Assembly: GCA_016840425.1 (NCBI GenBank)
Contig: JAEOSI010000009.1
Coordinates: forward strand, 1 to 22,922
DNA: 22,922 nucleotides
From: Candidatus Wukongarchaeum yapensis
Lineage (GTDB): Archaea; Asgardarchaeota; Wukongarchaeia; Wukongarchaeales; Wukongarchaeaceae
Reading direction: 5' to 3'
Both the position numbers and the translations under genes were made by a program. How positions within the stretch are numbered: position 1 is the first letter of the stretch; every line of letters starts with the position of its first letter. The notes under the pieces are model-generated. The model saw only the letters and a list, made by a program, of their open reading frames with translations. It was not told the DNA's origin and did no database searches. Shown here piece after piece: positions 3,269-16,144 of the stretch.

Positions 3269-4519
3269 TTGGGAAAAACGATAGTGGAAAAAATATTGGG
3301 AAGAGCTTCGGGTAAAGAAAACGTTTCTGCAGGAGAAATAGTTAATGCTAAAATCTCATTTCTCATGACAAATGATGCCGTTGGAGAACTTACTGTAAAA
3401 GCTTTTGAAGAGCTTGGAACAGAGGTTTGGGACAGAGAAAGAGTTGCAGTTATTTTAGACCATTTTGTTCCTGCTACTACAGAGAATGCGGCAAGGGTTC
3501 ACAGTTTGCTCAGAGCTTTTGCTAAAAAAAACGGGACTCATCTTCTTGATCAAGAAGGGGTTTGCCACCAAGTAATGATTGAAAAATTTGTAGTACCAGG
3601 AGACGTGGTAATAGGTACAGATTCACATACATGCACTTATGGAGGTATAGGAGCTTTTGCTACAGGCATAGGGTCCACAGACGGAGCAGCAGCAATGGCT
3701 ACGGGAGAACTTTGGTTTAAAGTGCCTGAAACTATAAACATAGAGCTTTCAGGGACGTTAAAAGAACATGTTTATCCAAAAGATGTGATTTTAAAAATAA
3801 TCGGCGACTTAGGGGCAGACGGAGCAACTTATAAAGCATTACAGTTCAGTGGAAAAAGCGCTAAAACCATAACAAATGCAGGCAGATTTACGATGTGTAA
3901 CATGGCCATCGAAGCAGGGGCAAAGGTCGGCATATTTGAACCAGATGAAATTACTCAAAAATTCCTTAAAGAGCGGGGGAAAGAAGACGGGGGAGAATTT
4001 TTTGAAAGCGATCTGGATGCAGAATATTGCGATTTTATCCCCATAAACCTTCAAGAAATTGAACCAAAAATCGCATGTCCTTGGTCGGTTGACAATGTTA
4101 AGCCGGTAGCAGAAGTGGAAGGGATAGAGATAAACCAAGCTTTTGCAGGATCTTGCACAAACGGTAGGCTGGAAGATCTGGAAGTAGTTGCCAAAATATT
4201 AAAGGGAAAAAAGGTGAACCCAGATATTCGTTTTTTAATCGCTCCAGCCTCAAGAAAAGTGTACCAACAAGCTTTGAAAGCTGGATTCATAAACGTTTTT
4301 CTCGAAGCAGGAGTCACTGTTTGTAATCCCAGCTGTTCTGCCTGTTTTGGAGGACAAGGAACGCTTTGGAAAGACGAAGTATGTATCGGTAGCCATAACA
4401 GAAACTTTCGAGCTAGAATGGGGCATAAAGATTCAAAAGTATATTTAGCCTCTCCAGAAACTGTAGCAGTCTCTGCCATAACCGGAAAAATAACAGATCC
4501 AAGAAGATTAAAAAAATAA
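3269..4519 (+). CDS. leuC: 3-isopropylmalate dehydratase large subunit (LeuC/HacA family)
   Basis: DHFVP, GVCHQV, DSHTCTYG, GSCTNGR, CSAC and NRNFRARMG aconitase-family motifs with three cluster cysteines. TTG start. Confidence 0.85.
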   Translation: MGKTIVEKILGRASGKENVSAGEIVNAKISFLMTNDAVGELTVKAFEELGTEVWDRERVAVILDHFVPATTENAARVHSLLRAFAKKNGTHLLDQEGVCHQVMIEKFVVPGDVVIGTDSHTCTYGGIGAFATGIGSTDGAAAMATGELWFKVPETINIELSGTLKEHVYPKDVILKIIGDLGADGATYKALQFSGKSAKTITNAGRFTMCNMAIEAGAKVGIFEPDEITQKFLKERGKEDGGEFFESDLDAEYCDFIPINLQEIEPKIACPWSVDNVKPVAEVEGIEINQAFAGSCTNGRLEDLEVVAKILKGKKVNPDIRFLIAPASRKVYQQALKAGFINVFLEAGVTVCNPSCSACFGGQGTLWKDEVCIGSHNRNFRARMGHKDSKVYLASPETVAVSAITGKITDPRRLKK

Positions 4520-4556: not shown

Positions 4557-5063
4557 TTGAAAATGGCGGTTATACATGGAAAGGTTTGGAAATTTGGCGA
4601 TAACATAGACACTGACATAATTATTCCTGCACGCTACCTTATCTTACCCATAGAAGAGGCAAAAGAAAAAGCTATGGAACCAATAAGGCCAAGCTTCTCT
4701 AAAGAGTTTGAGAAGAGTGGCATCATAATAGCTGGAAGAAATTTTGGTTGCGGTTCAAGCAGAGAACAAGCACCAGCAGTCTTAAGGGCTTTAGGAGTAA
4801 GCGCGATCGTGGCGAAAACTTTTGCAAGGATCTTTTTTAGAAACACGATAAACCTAGGAATACCCGCAATAGAATGCAAAGAAGCATGCGATAAAATCGA
4901 GGAAGGAGAAGAGATCGAGATAGAACCAGAAACAGGAAAAATAAAACTACTAAAACAAGCCATCACTTTACAAGGTTCAAAACTCCCCCCATTTTTGCTT
5001 GAAATCATAAAAGATGGCGGATTAATACCTCATTTGAAAAAACGATTAATTATAGGCGTATAA
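4557..5063 (+). CDS. leuD: 3-isopropylmalate dehydratase small subunit (likely start at ATG 4563)
   Basis: GDNIDTDIIIPARYL, AGRNFGCGSSREQA and FARIFFRN motifs. The specificity loop YLIL is hydrophobic (IPMI-like rather than the homoaconitase YLRT). Confidence 0.85.
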   Translation: MKMAVIHGKVWKFGDNIDTDIIIPARYLILPIEEAKEKAMEPIRPSFSKEFEKSGIIIAGRNFGCGSSREQAPAVLRALGVSAIVAKTFARIFFRNTINLGIPAIECKEACDKIEEGEEIEIEPETGKIKLLKQAITLQGSKLPPFLLEIIKDGGLIPHLKKRLIIGV

Positions 5064-5944
5064 TTGTTTTTACACCTAAAAACCCTCATTTAATTTTTTT
5101 CTTTACACCTCTTTTTATTTCGAAAGAAGAATTAATTCGCGGATCGTCCTTCCTAATAAACGTTCTTTACACCGTTATTTTTTAATTTCAGGATCAACTA
5201 AGTAAAAACAAATTAAAATAAAAGGTTTCCAAAGAGATAACAAAAAACAAAAGCAGAAAACATTTAATAAACAAAAAGTCCCCAAAAAATAAGCAAAAAA
5301 AGCTAATAAACAGGTCTCCATAGGAAAAAAGAAAACAAAGGAAAATAAAAAGAGAAAAAACAACAAAAGTATAAAGATCAAGAAAAACACGAATTCAACC
5401 AGCTAAAACCACCAGAATCCCATTTAGCTACCCTTAAAAGAAACACCGAACAAACACACTTTAAGCAAGACAACAAAAAACAAAAACAGGTCTCCACACA
5501 GAAAAACAAAACGGAAACCCGTCCCAACAGCAAGAACGTATTAAAAAAACGGTTAAACCCATAACACTCCTCCTGCCATCTAAAACAACTCCAAAAACCT
5601 ACTTCTTACTGCTAGGATGAGCTCTATCGACTTTTGAAACGGAAAAGCAACTTTTTCCTTCATTCAGTAGATCCAAAAGCAAAAATTTTCGATTTTAATT
5701 TGTCAGTTGGTCTGATTTTAGTAATATTCAGTATGGATACAATTTTCTTAAACTGTGATCCGCTTGATACGAACTCCTATGCGCCTAAATCTGAATGTAC
5801 CCCCCATGGGGGCATTCACGAAGCCTCAGCCTACTTTCGGAAGTAATGTCATTTATAAAACTTTTAATAAGCGTTAATATCACTTCTCTAAAACTTTAAA
5901 ATTAGTGAAGAAAAGCCTGAAATAATCATGATAGAGGTTAAAAA

Positions 5945-6610
5945 ATGTTAGATGAAGAGTTTTCTAGGACAGAATTTAAAGAACTATTTGACGCCATAAT
6001 GGAAGGGAACCGAGAAAAAGGAAAATTTATAGCCAACGCCTTAGTTGAACAGCAAATAAACCTAAAAGATGCACTCCTTGAAGGAGTAATGAGAACAGTA
6101 GTCAGGCTAGGAAACATGCTCAGTAGCAAAAACCCTGAAGACGTGAAAAAGTGGTCCGAATGCCTGATCACTATCTATGACGTATTAAACATCTTTAACA
6201 AAAACATTAAACCATCTGAAAAACCAGTAGGAAAAATTATCCTCGCATGCCTAAAAGGAGAAGGACACGCCATCGTTAAAGACATCCTTGCACCCGCATT
6301 CCGTGCAGAAGGCTTCGAAGTATACAACTTTAGATCACCAGCAACACCCCAACAAATCATGGAAAAAATCAAAGAAACAAAAGCAGACATCCTAGCCATC
6401 TCTGCAAGCATGAGAACGATGATAGAAGAAATAAAGAACCTCGACCAAGCATTAAAAACCGCAGGATTAAGGGAAAAAATCAAAATCCTAGTAGGAGGTT
6501 GGCTGGTTAGAAGAACATTCTTCGAAGAACTCAAGCCAGATCTAGACGCGTGGGCAAAAGACGCTTCAGAAGGTGTTGAAATAGTAAAAAGCTTAGCCCA
6601 GCAAGCCTAG
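5945..6610 (+). CDS. Corrinoid/cobalamin-binding protein (MtbC/MtaC-like cap plus B12-binding Rossmann domain), divergent motif
   Basis: Helical cap followed by GKIILACLKGEGHAIVK (canonical GDIHDIGK), GFEVY, ISASM and KILVGG. Confidence 0.75.
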   Translation: MLDEEFSRTEFKELFDAIMEGNREKGKFIANALVEQQINLKDALLEGVMRTVVRLGNMLSSKNPEDVKKWSECLITIYDVLNIFNKNIKPSEKPVGKIILACLKGEGHAIVKDILAPAFRAEGFEVYNFRSPATPQQIMEKIKETKADILAISASMRTMIEEIKNLDQALKTAGLREKIKILVGGWLVRRTFFEELKPDLDAWAKDASEGVEIVKSLAQQA

Positions 6611-7330: not shown

Positions 7331-8173
7331 TTGGAAAATGAAGTTAGAAGACGAATTATGGATGAACGCTTAAAAAAGGTTAAGGATAGAATGAGTAAAG
7401 TGAAGCATAAGATCGCTGTGATCAGTGGGAAGGGAGGTGTTGGCAAAAGTGTCGTAACCGTGAACCTCGCCATGGCTTTTGCAGTACACGGTTATGATAA
7501 TAGAGTAGGTATTCTTGATGCAGACATAACTGGTCCCTCTGTACCTAAGATAATTGGTTTACAGGGTGAGAGGCTTGTAGCCGAGCCTCAGGGCACAGTA
7601 ATTCCAGCGGTAGGCCCCTTAGACATCAAGGTTGTATCCATGGGCTTTCTGCTTCAAACTGAAGAAACACCAGTCATCTGGCGCGGTCCCCTAAAGGCAA
7701 GGGCAATCAACCAATTTTTATCGGATATTCTTTGGGGTGAACTGGACTTTTTGTTTATAGATCTTCCTCCAGGAACTGGTGATGAGCCCTTGAGCATTAT
7801 GCAACTCCTACCAGAGATGGATGGCGTGGTAATAGTTACAATACCTTCAGAAGTTTCACAAATTGTTGTCAAGAAGGCAGTTACTTTTGCTAAGCATCTG
7901 AAGATTCCTATCATAGGCATCATAGAGAATATGAGCGGTTTCATCTGCCCAAAATGCGGCGAGGAGATCGACATCTTCAAAAGAGGAGGAGGACAAAAGA
8001 TATCTGAGGATATGAACGTTCCTTTTCTGGGAAGAATCCCTATAGACCCTGAAATATGCGAATACTCTGATAAAGGCTTGTCCTTCATAGTTGAACATAA
8101 AAATTCACCAGCAGCAAAAGCTTTTATGGAGATTGTAAAAAAGATAGAAGAATTCTTAAAATCAAAAGAATGA
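7331..8173 (+). CDS. mrp: Mrp/ApbC/NBP35 family Fe-S cluster carrier ATPase
   Basis: SGKGGVGKS, LDADITGPS, VIWRGP, DLPPGTGD, ENMS and CPKC motifs. Confidence 0.9.
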   Translation: MENEVRRRIMDERLKKVKDRMSKVKHKIAVISGKGGVGKSVVTVNLAMAFAVHGYDNRVGILDADITGPSVPKIIGLQGERLVAEPQGTVIPAVGPLDIKVVSMGFLLQTEETPVIWRGPLKARAINQFLSDILWGELDFLFIDLPPGTGDEPLSIMQLLPEMDGVVIVTIPSEVSQIVVKKAVTFAKHLKIPIIGIIENMSGFICPKCGEEIDIFKRGGGQKISEDMNVPFLGRIPIDPEICEYSDKGLSFIVEHKNSPAAKAFMEIVKKIEEFLKSKE

Positions 8174-8572
8174 GAAACCTGCTGAGTGAACTGTTCCTGC
8201 CTTATTACTCTTTTCTGAAACTACTAATCTGAATTAAAGCCGATAATAGGGCTTTAATATTGAATTCTTCACTGTAATGCTTAGTAGTAGAATCAAAAGA
8301 CAAAATAGTGTAACAATAACTTATAACAGGACGAAAACGGTTCTGGATAAGAGTTTCTGAAAAACCTATTATTGAACGCGAAATCCTTTGCAACTAAGTT
8401 TAAAAGATACATTCTACGAAGTAAAAAATCAAGAACTTTTCTTCTTACAAAAAGTCGCTAAGAAAGCTCAAATCCTCCAGGGTTGAGATGAATTAGGGGA
8501 GGTGGGTGGGAGTATATACAAATTTGAAATATATTAAAAAATGTATACGTTATTTTGTTTTATATTGTTTAT

Positions 8573-8704
8573 ATGAGGGTAGAGAATCCTGTCAAACGAA
8601 AGCGTCTTCCAACTTTGTGGACTCACTCGAAGTTTATATCCTCTGTCGGGGCTGTAACTCTTGAAGTTGTTAAAAAATACATTGAAGAGCAGAAGGGGAA
8701 ATAG
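8573..8704 (+). pseudogene. tnpA: C-terminal 43-aa stub of an IS200-type Y1 transposase
   Basis: MRVENPVKRKRLPTLWTHSKFISSVGAVTLEVVKKYIEEQKGK matches the TnpA C-terminus (LPTLW..S.F...VG; catalytic Y in KYIEEQ). The HUH region is absent. Not in the ORF track. Confidence 0.8.
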
Positions 8705-8706
8705 AG

Positions 8707-9960
8707 ATGAAGAGGACCAACATCTTCAAGTTAAAGCCAGCAATTAAGGAGCAGGAGCAAAGACTGTTCGAGTTAGCCGATAACTGTGCAAGGATGTTTA
8801 ACGAGATAAACTATAAGCGTAGACAGTCCTTTTTCTCGCGAAACTTCGACTGGAACACCGACGAATCCTACCACAAGTATAAGAAGGTTATAGGCTCTGC
8901 TACAGCTCAACAAGTAACAAGGAAGAACAACGAGGCTTGGAAGTCTTTCTTCGCTTTGTTAAGGTTGAAAAAGCAGGGAAAACTCCCAAGGCAGATAAGA
9001 AAGGTTTCTCCTCCAGGCTACTGGAAAGACAGGAAAACGGGGAAAAGGGTTTTAATGATTCTTATAAGGTGTAACTGTTATAAGCTTTCCGAGAAGTATC
9101 TAAAACTCCCCTTCGGGCTAAAAGTTAGGTGGAAAGGAAAGAACAGGTGGGAGGGGAAAAAGCAGGGAAGGTTAGAGATACGTTACGATGACCTCTCAAG
9201 CCGATGGTATGCTTATATGCCGGTAGAGGTAGAAAGAAAACCGCTACATCAACCAACAGGAGACAAGAAAAAGAAGGCATACGTCGACTTGGGGATCATA
9301 AACATCATAACCAGTTGGATAGAAGGAGAAAAAAGACCGGGGATATATTCTGGTAGTACTGTTTTAAGCGATTGGTGGTATTGGAACGAAAAAATAGGAG
9401 AATATCAAAGCAACATGGAGAAAAACGGGAAAAGGAAAACATCAAAAAGGTTAAGAAAATTGTTTAGGAAGAGGAAGAAAAGGTTTAGACATTTGATAAA
9501 CACGATAATAGCGAGGTTTGTGAAAAACTGCTGGGAAAAAGGAGTTTCAGAAATCGTTATAGGAGACGTAAAAAACATAAGAGAGAACAGTAGAAAGAAA
9601 AAGAAAGGTAGAAAAGCTAACGCTATGATAAACAACTTCTGGTCTTTTAACTACATCTACGAAAGACTAAGAACAACGGTGGAAAACTACGGGATAAAGA
9701 TGAGGAAAAAGGAGGAGAAATACACGTCTAAAACATGTTCTCTCTGCGGGAAAGTGCACAGAAACGGTAGAAAACACAGGGGACTATACGTTTGTAAAAC
9801 GCACGGGGTAACAATGAACGCTGATGTTAACGGTGTTGCAAACATAGCTAACCCCATATTCCCGAAGCCCTACTGGCGGGATAGGGATAACTGGCTGGTG
9901 ACACAGCCATCAGTTGTGAAAGCTCTAATTTTCACAACCGTAAAACCTCCAACCCTTTAG
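8707..9960 (+). CDS. tnpB: TnpB RNA-guided endonuclease (IS605 OrfB family)
   Basis: RuvC-I VDLG, RuvC-II position IGD, E-x-YTS followed by CSLCG...CKTH zinc finger, and RuvC-III NADVNGVANI. The stop codon lies inside the right-end hairpin. Confidence 0.92.
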   Translation: MKRTNIFKLKPAIKEQEQRLFELADNCARMFNEINYKRRQSFFSRNFDWNTDESYHKYKKVIGSATAQQVTRKNNEAWKSFFALLRLKKQGKLPRQIRKVSPPGYWKDRKTGKRVLMILIRCNCYKLSEKYLKLPFGLKVRWKGKNRWEGKKQGRLEIRYDDLSSRWYAYMPVEVERKPLHQPTGDKKKKAYVDLGIINIITSWIEGEKRPGIYSGSTVLSDWWYWNEKIGEYQSNMEKNGKRKTSKRLRKLFRKRKKRFRHLINTIIARFVKNCWEKGVSEIVIGDVKNIRENSRKKKKGRKANAMINNFWSFNYIYERLRTTVENYGIKMRKKEEKYTSKTCSLCGKVHRNGRKHRGLYVCKTHGVTMNADVNGVANIANPIFPKPYWRDRDNWLVTQPSVVKALIFTTVKPPTL

Positions 9961-10084
9961 GGTGGAGAGTATGTCAGTGAATTTAAATAAGGTTTTGGTA
10001 TTTCTCGTCTTTGTAGATGTTTCCTAGTTGTTTGGTAGTAAACGTAATGATGGTGTTTTTAGAAAGCTGTTTGCTGAAGATCTT

Positions 10085-10849
10085 TTAAATGAAATGTATT
10101 TCCCTTAGTATGGCTGTGATGTCTACTAAGGCTTCTTTAGCCGTTAATGGGACGCCCTCTAGGGAAGACTTAAAGACCTCTTCATCAAACCGCACAACCC
10201 CTGCCACTTCTAATCCCATATTCCTAGCTTTTGACATTACTATGTCAGCTGTTTCCGGCGTTACCTTATTTATCACGAGCCAAAATTTCTTTTTCATTTT
10301 CGTTAATTCTTCTTTGAGGATTTTAGCTAACATAAGCGACTCAGCTGTTGGGTCAACTATTGCTAAAGCTGCATCGCATCCCTCCTCAACCCCTCGACCT
10401 AAATGCTCTAGACCAGCATCTGCATCAACGAGGATCATTTCTCTATCCTCTAACAACAGATTCTTGAGAAGAGTTTTAGCTAGAAAATTGAAAGGACAGG
10501 CGCATCCTTCCCCTAACTCTCTCACCTTACCTATGGTTACTAACTTGATGTCCTCAGGCGATGAGGATACATACTCGCTGGGCAAATTGGCTAATTTAAT
10601 GCCTTCTCCAGCTTCTATTAATGCATTTACTATGTTGACTTCTCCTCTTTTGAATATATCTTTCTTACCTCCAAGATATTCAACAAGAGGTTTCGGCGAC
10701 CCTGCACCGAGAATCTGAGGAAGCAAGGTATTAGACTCATCGGAGTCTACTACATAAACTTCATAATTTTTAGATAACACCTTGGCTATGAGAACTGTTA
10801 AAGCTGATTTCCCTGAACCGCCCTTACCGCAAATCATAACCTTCATCAA
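10085..10849 (-). CDS. cooC: CooC/AcsF-type nickel-insertion ATPase
   Basis: CGKGGSGKS, DSDES, EGCACP nickel-binding motif and DADAGLEHLGRG. Confidence 0.85.
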   Translation of the reverse strand: MMKVMICGKGGSGKSALTVLIAKVLSKNYEVYVVDSDESNTLLPQILGAGSPKPLVEYLGGKKDIFKRGEVNIVNALIEAGEGIKLANLPSEYVSSSPEDIKLVTIGKVRELGEGCACPFNFLAKTLLKNLLLEDREMILVDADAGLEHLGRGVEEGCDAALAIVDPTAESLMLAKILKEELTKMKKKFWLVINKVTPETADIVMSKARNMGLEVAGVVRFDEEVFKSSLEGVPLTAKEALVDITAILREIHFI

Positions 10850-15520: not shown

Positions 15521-16144
15521 CTATGTTGTTTCTATTAGTTTTTCTATTTGCTTTTCAATTTCTTCCTTTTGCGGTATTGCACTTTTTGACTCTATTTTTA
15601 GGGGGTTTCCTTTTTTGAAATAGAGTAGGATAGGGGTACTGGTAATACCGTATTCTTCCCAAGTGTTCGTGGACGTTATGTCCATTTGATAAAAACGGAC
15701 TTGGTCTTTAAACCTTTCTTCAACATCTTTTAAATCTTTCTCCAATCTTTTACAGGAAGGACAGTTTTTGGACATAAAAATTAGGGCTACTGGTTTGTTT
15801 GATTTCAAAACTAAAGCTTCAAATTCGTGGTCATTTATCGTTCTTATAAAAGCTTCTCCTTCCTCTTTTTTCGGTTTTATTTTGAATATTTTTAATATTT
15901 TGTCAAAGATGCTTTCATACTTTTTGTATGATATACGGTATCCTAGGTCTTCGATCTTCTTCTCAAGGTCGGGTACGTCGATTTTTTCTGGGTCATATGT
16001 CACTACAACTTTACGTATTAGGAGGTTTATGCGGACATCTTTAACGCCTTCCAGCTTCTTCATCTCTTTTTCTATAGTTAGAGCGCAAGAAGCACAATCC
16101 ATTCGATCAATAGGTATGGTCTTTCTCAAGTAATTTTCCGACAT
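15521..16144 (-). CDS. HMA (CopZ-like) domain fused to a thioredoxin domain
   Basis: N-terminal MDCASC with LEGV...DLGY HMA pattern. C-terminal CPSC with cis-Pro loop ITSTP and FKKG. Confidence 0.8.
   Translation of the reverse strand: MSENYLRKTIPIDRMDCASCALTIEKEMKKLEGVKDVRINLLIRKVVVTYDPEKIDVPDLEKKIEDLGYRISYKKYESIFDKILKIFKIKPKKEEGEAFIRTINDHEFEALVLKSNKPVALIFMSKNCPSCKRLEKDLKDVEERFKDQVRFYQMDITSTNTWEEYGITSTPILLYFKKGNPLKIESKSAIPQKEEIEKQIEKLIETT

Follow-up and report, generated by a model that had tools for sequence, protein, structure and literature searches.

TnpB proteins that carry their catalytic glutamate at an alternative position have been published as a class under three names, TnpB2 (PMC10530073), Ealt (PMC10711439) and the RIIr clades (PMC10691335), and the replacement of the canonical glutamate by glycine together with a compensating glutamate, as well as the existence of archaea-specific branches, has already been noted (PMC10691335). 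By definition, Ealt proteins have a conserved glutamate six residues before the first CxxC (ExxxxxxCxxC; PMC10711439). The Ealt protein TvTnpB of Thermoplasma volcanium GSS1 cleaves DNA flanked by NTGAC in a manner dependent on the transposon-adjacent motif (TAM) (Jiang et al., 2023; PMC10530073), and mutation of the equivalent glutamate abolishes cleavage by Fanzor2 (PMC10530073). Processing of tnpB mRNA by TnpB itself is a known route to omegaRNA (PMC10278001), and sotRNAs, which are 3'-overlapping transcripts of IS1341-type tnpB genes with an 8-bp tetraloop hairpin, have been detected experimentally in Halobacterium (Gomes-Filho et al., 2015; PMC4615843). The present analysis concerns a 1,529-bp tnpB-bearing element of the IS200/IS605 family at positions 8449-9977 of a 22,922-nt stretch of Candidatus Wukongarchaeum yapensis DNA (contig JAEOSI010000009.1, assembly GCA_016840425.1). 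This stretch, hereafter the window, corresponds to contig C117 in a 2.16-Mb archaeal metagenome-assembled genome (MAG) of 277 contigs.

The TnpB encoded by the element has glycine at the canonical RuvC-II glutamate position and an invariant glutamate further downstream. The locus is most probably a non-autonomous IS200/IS605 element with an intact alternative-glutamate TnpB, an omegaRNA and a homing guide. By analogy with the characterised proteins, the product would be an RNA-guided DNA endonuclease of the alternative-glutamate class; "candidate nuclease", the phrase used in an earlier sequence-only reading of this DNA, is a fair description of a type that is not new.

Element limits, empty sites and target motif

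Sibling copies and two empty sites delimit the element, whose left edge falls between 8448 and 8449 (TTAC/AAAAAGTCGC, the slash marking the junction) and whose right edge falls between 9977 and 9978 (GTCAG/TGAATTT). The empty sites, located via proteins near-identical to the upstream Mrp-type ATPase, lie in two related genomes (L120 and L121), where the Mrp gene and a convergent CooC-like gene are separated by 380 bp. The intergenic DNA of both is colinear with window positions 8130-8448 and 9978-10120 at 96-99% identity, and at the junction the unoccupied site (...TTCTTCTTAC/TGAATTTAAATAAG...) and the occupied flanks agree in every base. Since both empty sites read TTAC/TGAATTT, the limits 8449-9977 are exact and insertion occurred 3' of TTAC without target duplication. 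Among the checks proposed by the sequence-only reading were an empty site reading CTTAC/TGAATT and agreement of the ends with other genomic copies. The former is present in both related genomes; as to the latter, nine right ends stop at ...GAGAGTATGTCAG, two of them with one substitution in a hairpin arm, and the copy in locus L035 (GCA_976602455.1) has the same end. The right end is placed at 9977 because the flanks of the nine copies diverge from the next base, in agreement with the boundary first proposed for the omegaRNA region overlapping the 3' end of the open reading frame (ORF), and with a native guide starting at 9978. The left end, from TTAC/AAAAAGTCGC onward, is common to the window copy, the copy on contig C70 of the same genome and L035, with similarity beginning at about 8445 (TTAC in both flanks) and an identity of about 92%.

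Elsewhere, metagenome contigs scanned for the exact pattern of the empty site gave no hit, and a left-flank query of the same-genus genome G001 returned just a weak match of 53 bases within the Mrp gene (E 1.2e-5). Contig C147, with its 86%-identical Mrp gene, was considered as an empty site and rejected as a paralogous locus with unrelated downstream DNA. This contig carries, at 4737-6120, a second Mrp/NBP35-type ATPase gene that is 86% identical to window 7331-8173, and its end resembles the first bases of another tnpB (…AAGAAGAACC).

Two further subfamilies occur in the genome, one on contigs C5, C2 and C268 (about 87% TnpB identity) and one on C235 and C91 (57%), with other left ends that also follow TTAC. 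In all, TTAC precedes the left end at nine junctions representing three subfamilies, in this genome and L035. The TAM had been given as TTAC or possibly CTTAC; the base before TTAC varies over the nine junctions (C, T, G, T, A, T, T, T, T), so the longer form is dropped and TTAC stands. TTAC is also the target of IS608. A scan of GTDB genomes yielded 79 related loci, with right ends placed for 55; hairpins resembling the right end (RE) were sought at the left ends of 55 related loci as a guide to a family-wide TAM and one was found (L041), so the TAM is drawn from the nine junctions in this genome and L035. The insertion has the features of IS200/IS605 elements, namely a fixed tetranucleotide, no target duplication and no terminal inverted repeats.

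Of the subterminal imperfect hairpins expected at both ends of such elements, that of the RE is clear and covarying, and the same DNA also serves as the 3' stem of the predicted omegaRNA. The final bases are TCAG (...AGTATGTCAG), and the TCAA cited earlier for IS608 does not hold for this copy, being a variant found in more distant relatives. The left end (LE) folds weakly as single-stranded DNA (z -0.21, window 8449-8520).

The TnpB protein and its relocated glutamate

The ORF had been read as a full-length TnpB, and its product scores above the Pfam cutoffs for both OrfB_IS605 (61.4 bits; cutoff 30.5) and the zinc-ribbon domain Cas12f1-like_TNB (51.4 bits; cutoff 26.3). In the phmmer alignment to AsCas12f (8j12), DLG falls on DLG at RuvC-I, IVIGDV on IQMEDL, and NADVNG on NADYNA at RuvC-III; the canonical RuvC-II glutamate is hence Gly286. 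Invariant positions in a family alignment of 26 relatives (93-49% identity) are D194, G286, E337, C344, C347, C363 and D373. E337 is the glutamate of E-K-Y-T-S, 51 residues past G286 and six residues before the zinc finger (E337-KYTSKT-C344-SL-C347), in line with the Ealt definition, and the residue at the canonical RuvC-II position is non-acidic. The sequence-only reading had recognised this arrangement correctly, including the glycine of IVIGDV (Gly in 26 of 26 relatives), the glutamate about 51 residues downstream and the intact RuvC-I and RuvC-III aspartates. The zinc finger consists of C344, C347, C363 and H366. Its second half (window 9793-9804) takes the form CxxH here. The C5 subfamily has CxxQ instead, and CxxC is the form of the C235 subfamily and of most relatives, so that the fourth zinc ligand differs by subfamily (His, Gln or Cys) and is not conserved among otherwise intact copies.

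The AlphaFold2 (AF2) model has a mean predicted local distance difference test score of 80.3. G286 lies within strand 280-287, and E337 comes right after the strand that follows in the RNase H sheet (331-336), an arrangement from which E337 would be expected to lie close to the two aspartates in three dimensions. Foldseek matched the model over its full length to AsCas12f (E 1.8e-19), ISDra2 TnpB (1.8e-16) and ApmFz2 (1.9e-14), with template modelling (TM) scores of 0.52-0.58, and the TnpB fold (WED-REC-RuvC) is present. The active site would be composed of D194, E337 and D373, with E337 presumably acting in place of the canonical glutamate.

Ratios of non-synonymous to synonymous substitution rates (dN/dS) for tnpB are 0.16-0.27 between copies and 0.16 against L035, and the D, G, E and D residues are kept in all copies. 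The gene is under purifying selection.

Copies, predicted omegaRNA and guide

Upstream of tnpB, the window copy retains a remnant of tnpA, which was missed by the sequence-only reading, as was the published status of the relocated-glutamate class. A 282-bp in-frame internal deletion has removed residues 10-103, including the HUH motif, and the Pfam Y1_Tnp match is limited to the C-terminal profile positions 84-121. The window copy is therefore non-autonomous. At the same position, the C70 and L035 copies encode a full 137-aa Y1 HUH TnpA (Pfam Y1_Tnp, E 8.9e-41), and through these siblings the element has the Y1 TnpA beside tnpB that is expected of the IS200/IS605 family. Copies are numerous in this genome, most of them interrupted by contig ends, and tnpA lies directly upstream of tnpB in about 20 of 69 related loci. 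The genome to which L120 and L035 belong (GCA_976602455.1) carries a full autonomous copy, with TnpA and TnpB and 94% DNA identity, away from the empty site and adjoining genes for a flavin reductase-like protein and an AP-endonuclease-family protein. As the site is empty in that genome and a copy is present elsewhere, the insertion is polymorphic among close relatives.

Several variant copies were also observed. In the subfamily on C5 (L002:1387-1539), C2 and C268, which has the same right end and the same TTAC, tnpA is absent and is replaced by a 51-aa ORF that overlaps the start of tnpB and matches VAPB_antitox, a Pfam family of ribbon-helix-helix (RHH) type (E 5.9e-7, 30.6 bits; cutoff 27.9). 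The LE of this RHH subfamily holds a near-copy of the right-end hairpin, and the subfamily looks mobile because three left-end and several right-end junctions have differing flanks. Contig C181 bears, at about 3929-3979, a mini-element of about 51 nt in which TTAC and a C5-type left end are fused via the hairpin to the tail ...GAGAGTATGTCAG, with no ORF and no omegaRNA body, while contig C54 bears a solitary 35-nt right-end hairpin and tail at about 15620-15654. The closest GTDB relative (L037, 87% identity; Hodarchaeota MAG DZ1B.339) has an in-frame stop at about codon 54 of tnpB and a right end reading GCCAG, and is probably a decaying copy.

The region 9788-9977 folds more stably than shuffled sequence (z -2.89) into four helices followed by the tail AGUAUGUCAG. 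Three of these helices (B, C and D) show covariation, their pairing being kept across about 50 archaeal relatives. Compensatory changes affect three of the five pairs of hairpin B; the inner 4-bp stem of hairpin D occurs in 36 distinct versions in a set of 54 sequences, 43 of which have a UUUA or UUCA loop; and the arms of helix C pair more strongly within a locus (mean -13.8 kcal/mol) than between loci (-7.9 kcal/mol; Mann-Whitney p ~1e-12), a p-value that overstates the evidence because the sequences are related. RNAalifold, run on a MAFFT alignment of the terminal 42 nt, predicted no pairs because a bulge changes arms between subgroups and the register shifts, and per-sequence folds were used instead. 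The RNA structure is conserved. Rfam scores for sot0042 (RF02656; 26.5 bits, threshold 88) and HgcC (RF00062; 20.1 bits, threshold 50) are far below the gathering thresholds, so that the RNA is not a formal member of either family; the consensus of both has the same terminal hairpin and a ...GUCAG tail. In three loci (L049, L052 and L053, from Archaeoglobaceae and an uncultured archaeon), an insertion of about 45 nt that itself forms a hairpin separates the arms of the terminal hairpin, suggestive of a nested element or of an enlarged stem in the 3' hairpin of the omegaRNA. The omegaRNA would be expected to be transcribed and processed. The positions of all features are collected in Table 1.

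Table 1. Features of the tnpB element and its junctions, in window coordinates
Feature	Positions	Strand	Basis or remark
TTAC target tetranucleotide (TAM)	8445-8448	+	Host DNA directly 5' of the left end
Non-coding left end (LE) of the IS200/IS605-family element	8449-8572	+	Similarity to C70 and L035; empty sites
tnpA remnant, 43-codon in-frame ORF	8573-8704	+	Pfam Y1_Tnp C-terminal match; full sibling copies
tnpB, 417 aa	8707-9960	+	Pfam domains; AsCas12f alignment; AF2/Foldseek
Codon of D194 (RuvC-I)	9286-9288	+	
Codon of G286	9562-9564	+	
Codon of E337	9715-9717	+	
Codon of D373 (RuvC-III)	9823-9825	+	
Predicted omegaRNA scaffold	9853-9977	+	RNA fold, Rfam, compensatory changes; 5' end may lie near 9800
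Helix A	9853-9886	+	Predicted in this sequence only
Hairpin B	9892-9909	+	
Helix C	9913-9938	+	
Terminal hairpin D, UUUA loop	9947-9967	+	
Tail AGUAUGUCAG	9968-9977	+	
Right end (RE): subterminal imperfect hairpin and cleavage-site tail ending TCAG	9947-9977	+	Copies; empty sites
Predicted native guide	9978-9997	+	Host DNA 3' of RE; length of 16-20 nt assumed from other TnpBs

The predicted guide RNA is UGAAUUUAAAUAAGGU(UUUG), and in the empty sites the guide sequence directly follows TTAC. In the genome it is matched perfectly at the occupied site alone, with TCAG in place of TTAC before the match, so that self-protection of the occupied site is expected.

These elements suggest the following scheme. 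Inserted 3' of TTAC between convergent host genes for an Mrp/NBP35-type ATPase and a CooC-like ATPase, the window copy would move only with a Y1 transposase supplied in trans by a sibling, and the C70 sibling could be such a source, having a full TnpA. From about 9800-9850 to 9977, the 3'-terminal part of the tnpB transcript would fold into the omegaRNA scaffold, and read-through into host DNA would supply the guide. Following the established homing model for TnpB, the complex would then cut the empty donor site left by excision, in which TTAC adjoins the guide match, and the cut site would recombine with the sister chromosome copy and so restore the element.

Weighing the readings and comparison with known systems

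Some features weigh against an intact and functional homing system. The LE of the tnpA-bearing subfamily has no convincing RE-like hairpin, the zinc finger may be weakened by a His or Gln as its fourth ligand, and the deletion in tnpA marks the window copy as a decaying transposon; moreover, six or more further assemblies or samples have the same deleted insertion, and an insertion so shared has not moved recently. The last two points, together with the in-frame stop already present in the close relative L037, are what would be expected of a decaying relic, that is, a fixed and immobile copy whose tnpB and omegaRNA are intact merely through recency and are no longer expressed or useful. We consider this unlikely, given that the full-length ORF retains all the invariant residues, that dN/dS against the L035 copy is low, that both transposon ends are intact, and that the in-frame tnpA deletion has left the upstream start in place and translationally coupled to tnpB.

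The missing canonical glutamate could also mean that the glycine at RuvC-II kills the nuclease and leaves an RNA-guided DNA binder or repressor like TldR, as nuclease-dead TnpB derivatives do exist (PMC10705468). This is very improbable in view of the invariance of E337, D194 and D373 in the family alignment, the multi-copy, mobile nature of elements that have their own ends, and the catalytic activity of the Ealt configuration in TvTnpB and Fanzors (PMC10530073, PMC11832414). Recruitment by the host, for example through a read-through RNA regulating the downstream CooC-like gene, would fit the position of the guide and read-through 3' of that convergent gene, which ends at 10085, and the retention of the insertion in several samples. 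It deserves scarcely any weight, however, as both genes are also kept in close relatives whose site is empty, and nothing sets the window copy apart from its mobile siblings. An intact alternative-glutamate TnpB element with its omegaRNA and homing guide is the reading that we retain.

A search for the family gave 471 hits; wherever these carry names, the names are archaeal, including Asgard lineages, Archaeoglobi, Alkanophagales, Thermococci, Bathyarchaeia and others. Tentatively, and with considerable doubt, this may be a widespread archaeal family that gained its glutamate independently of the cyanobacterial pro-Fanzors, tolerates a degenerate zinc finger (CxxC...CxxH/CxxQ) and includes a mobile RHH-TnpB sibling. 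The DLG motif at RuvC-I, the Y1 TnpA partner and a score nearer to Cas12f than to Fanzor2 point to such an independent gain. If true, the VapB-like RHH sibling would be a mobile form of the RHH-TnpB pairing; in its published RHH/MazE-TnpB form, this pairing has reportedly been described only as immobile.

No new principle is involved, as the relocated-glutamate site, its activity and the link to Fanzors are already published. What the locus adds is a fully specified Asgard-archaeal TnpB system, comprising the protein, a TAM from nine junctions, ends proven by empty sites, a predicted omegaRNA core backed by covariation, and a native guide. It is a clean example for comparative biochemistry, such as the study of collateral cleavage, which Ealt enzymes are predicted to lack, or of His/Gln zinc-finger variants, and a further instance of the heavy IS200/IS605 load in Asgard genomes.

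Among the described systems, the closest include TvTnpB and the RIIr clades (Altae-Tran et al., 2023; PMC10691335). Like TvTnpB, the present protein is archaeal, of about 400 aa, associated with an IS605-type Y1 TnpA and an omegaRNA from the right end, with an inert residue at the canonical RuvC-II position and a conserved glutamate about 45-51 residues downstream. Set beside TvTnpB by its published description, the present element differs in its inferred TAM (TTAC, against NTGAC) and in having His as the fourth zinc ligand.

With Fanzor2 of Acanthamoeba polyphaga mimivirus (PDB 9b0l), the protein shares the glutamate six residues before the zinc finger and nearly the same spacing of catalytic residues (D194-143-E337-36-D373, against D324-143-E467-34-D501 in the solved Fanzor2; PMC11832414). 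The family profile matches 9b0l with E 4.8e-13 and Foldseek gives a TM score of 0.52; in both sequence (family profile) and fold (Foldseek), however, the protein is closer to Cas12f, which has the canonical glutamate. It differs from Fanzor2 and the pro-Fanzors (PMC10711439) in having DLG and not DPG at RuvC-I, in lacking an N-terminal extension, and in its partner, a Y1 TnpA and not a serine recombinase or eukaryotic transposase. The relocated glutamate had been likened to that of Fanzors and a related TnpB subgroup; the assignment to the Ealt class stands, whereas the DPG motif of the Fanzor-ancestral subgroup is absent. Pro-Fanzors are recognised by DPG at RuvC-I and by a cyanobacterial host with an IS607 context, and the present protein, with its DLG, archaeal host and Y1 TnpA partner, is therefore not one of them.

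The overall organisation is that of ISDra2 (Deinococcus radiodurans) and IS608 (Helicobacter pylori), with LE, tnpA, tnpB, an omegaRNA overlapping the tnpB 3' end and RE in this order, the element being inserted 3' of a tetranucleotide that also serves as TAM, without duplication of the target. It differs in the position of the catalytic glutamate, which is canonical in ISDra2 TnpB, in its TCAG right end and in the deletion of tnpA. The predicted RNA, finally, resembles the Halobacterium sotRNA (sot0042) and HgcC in lying over the tnpB 3' end and in combining an 8-bp stem, a UUCA or UUUA tetraloop and a ...GUCAG-like tail.

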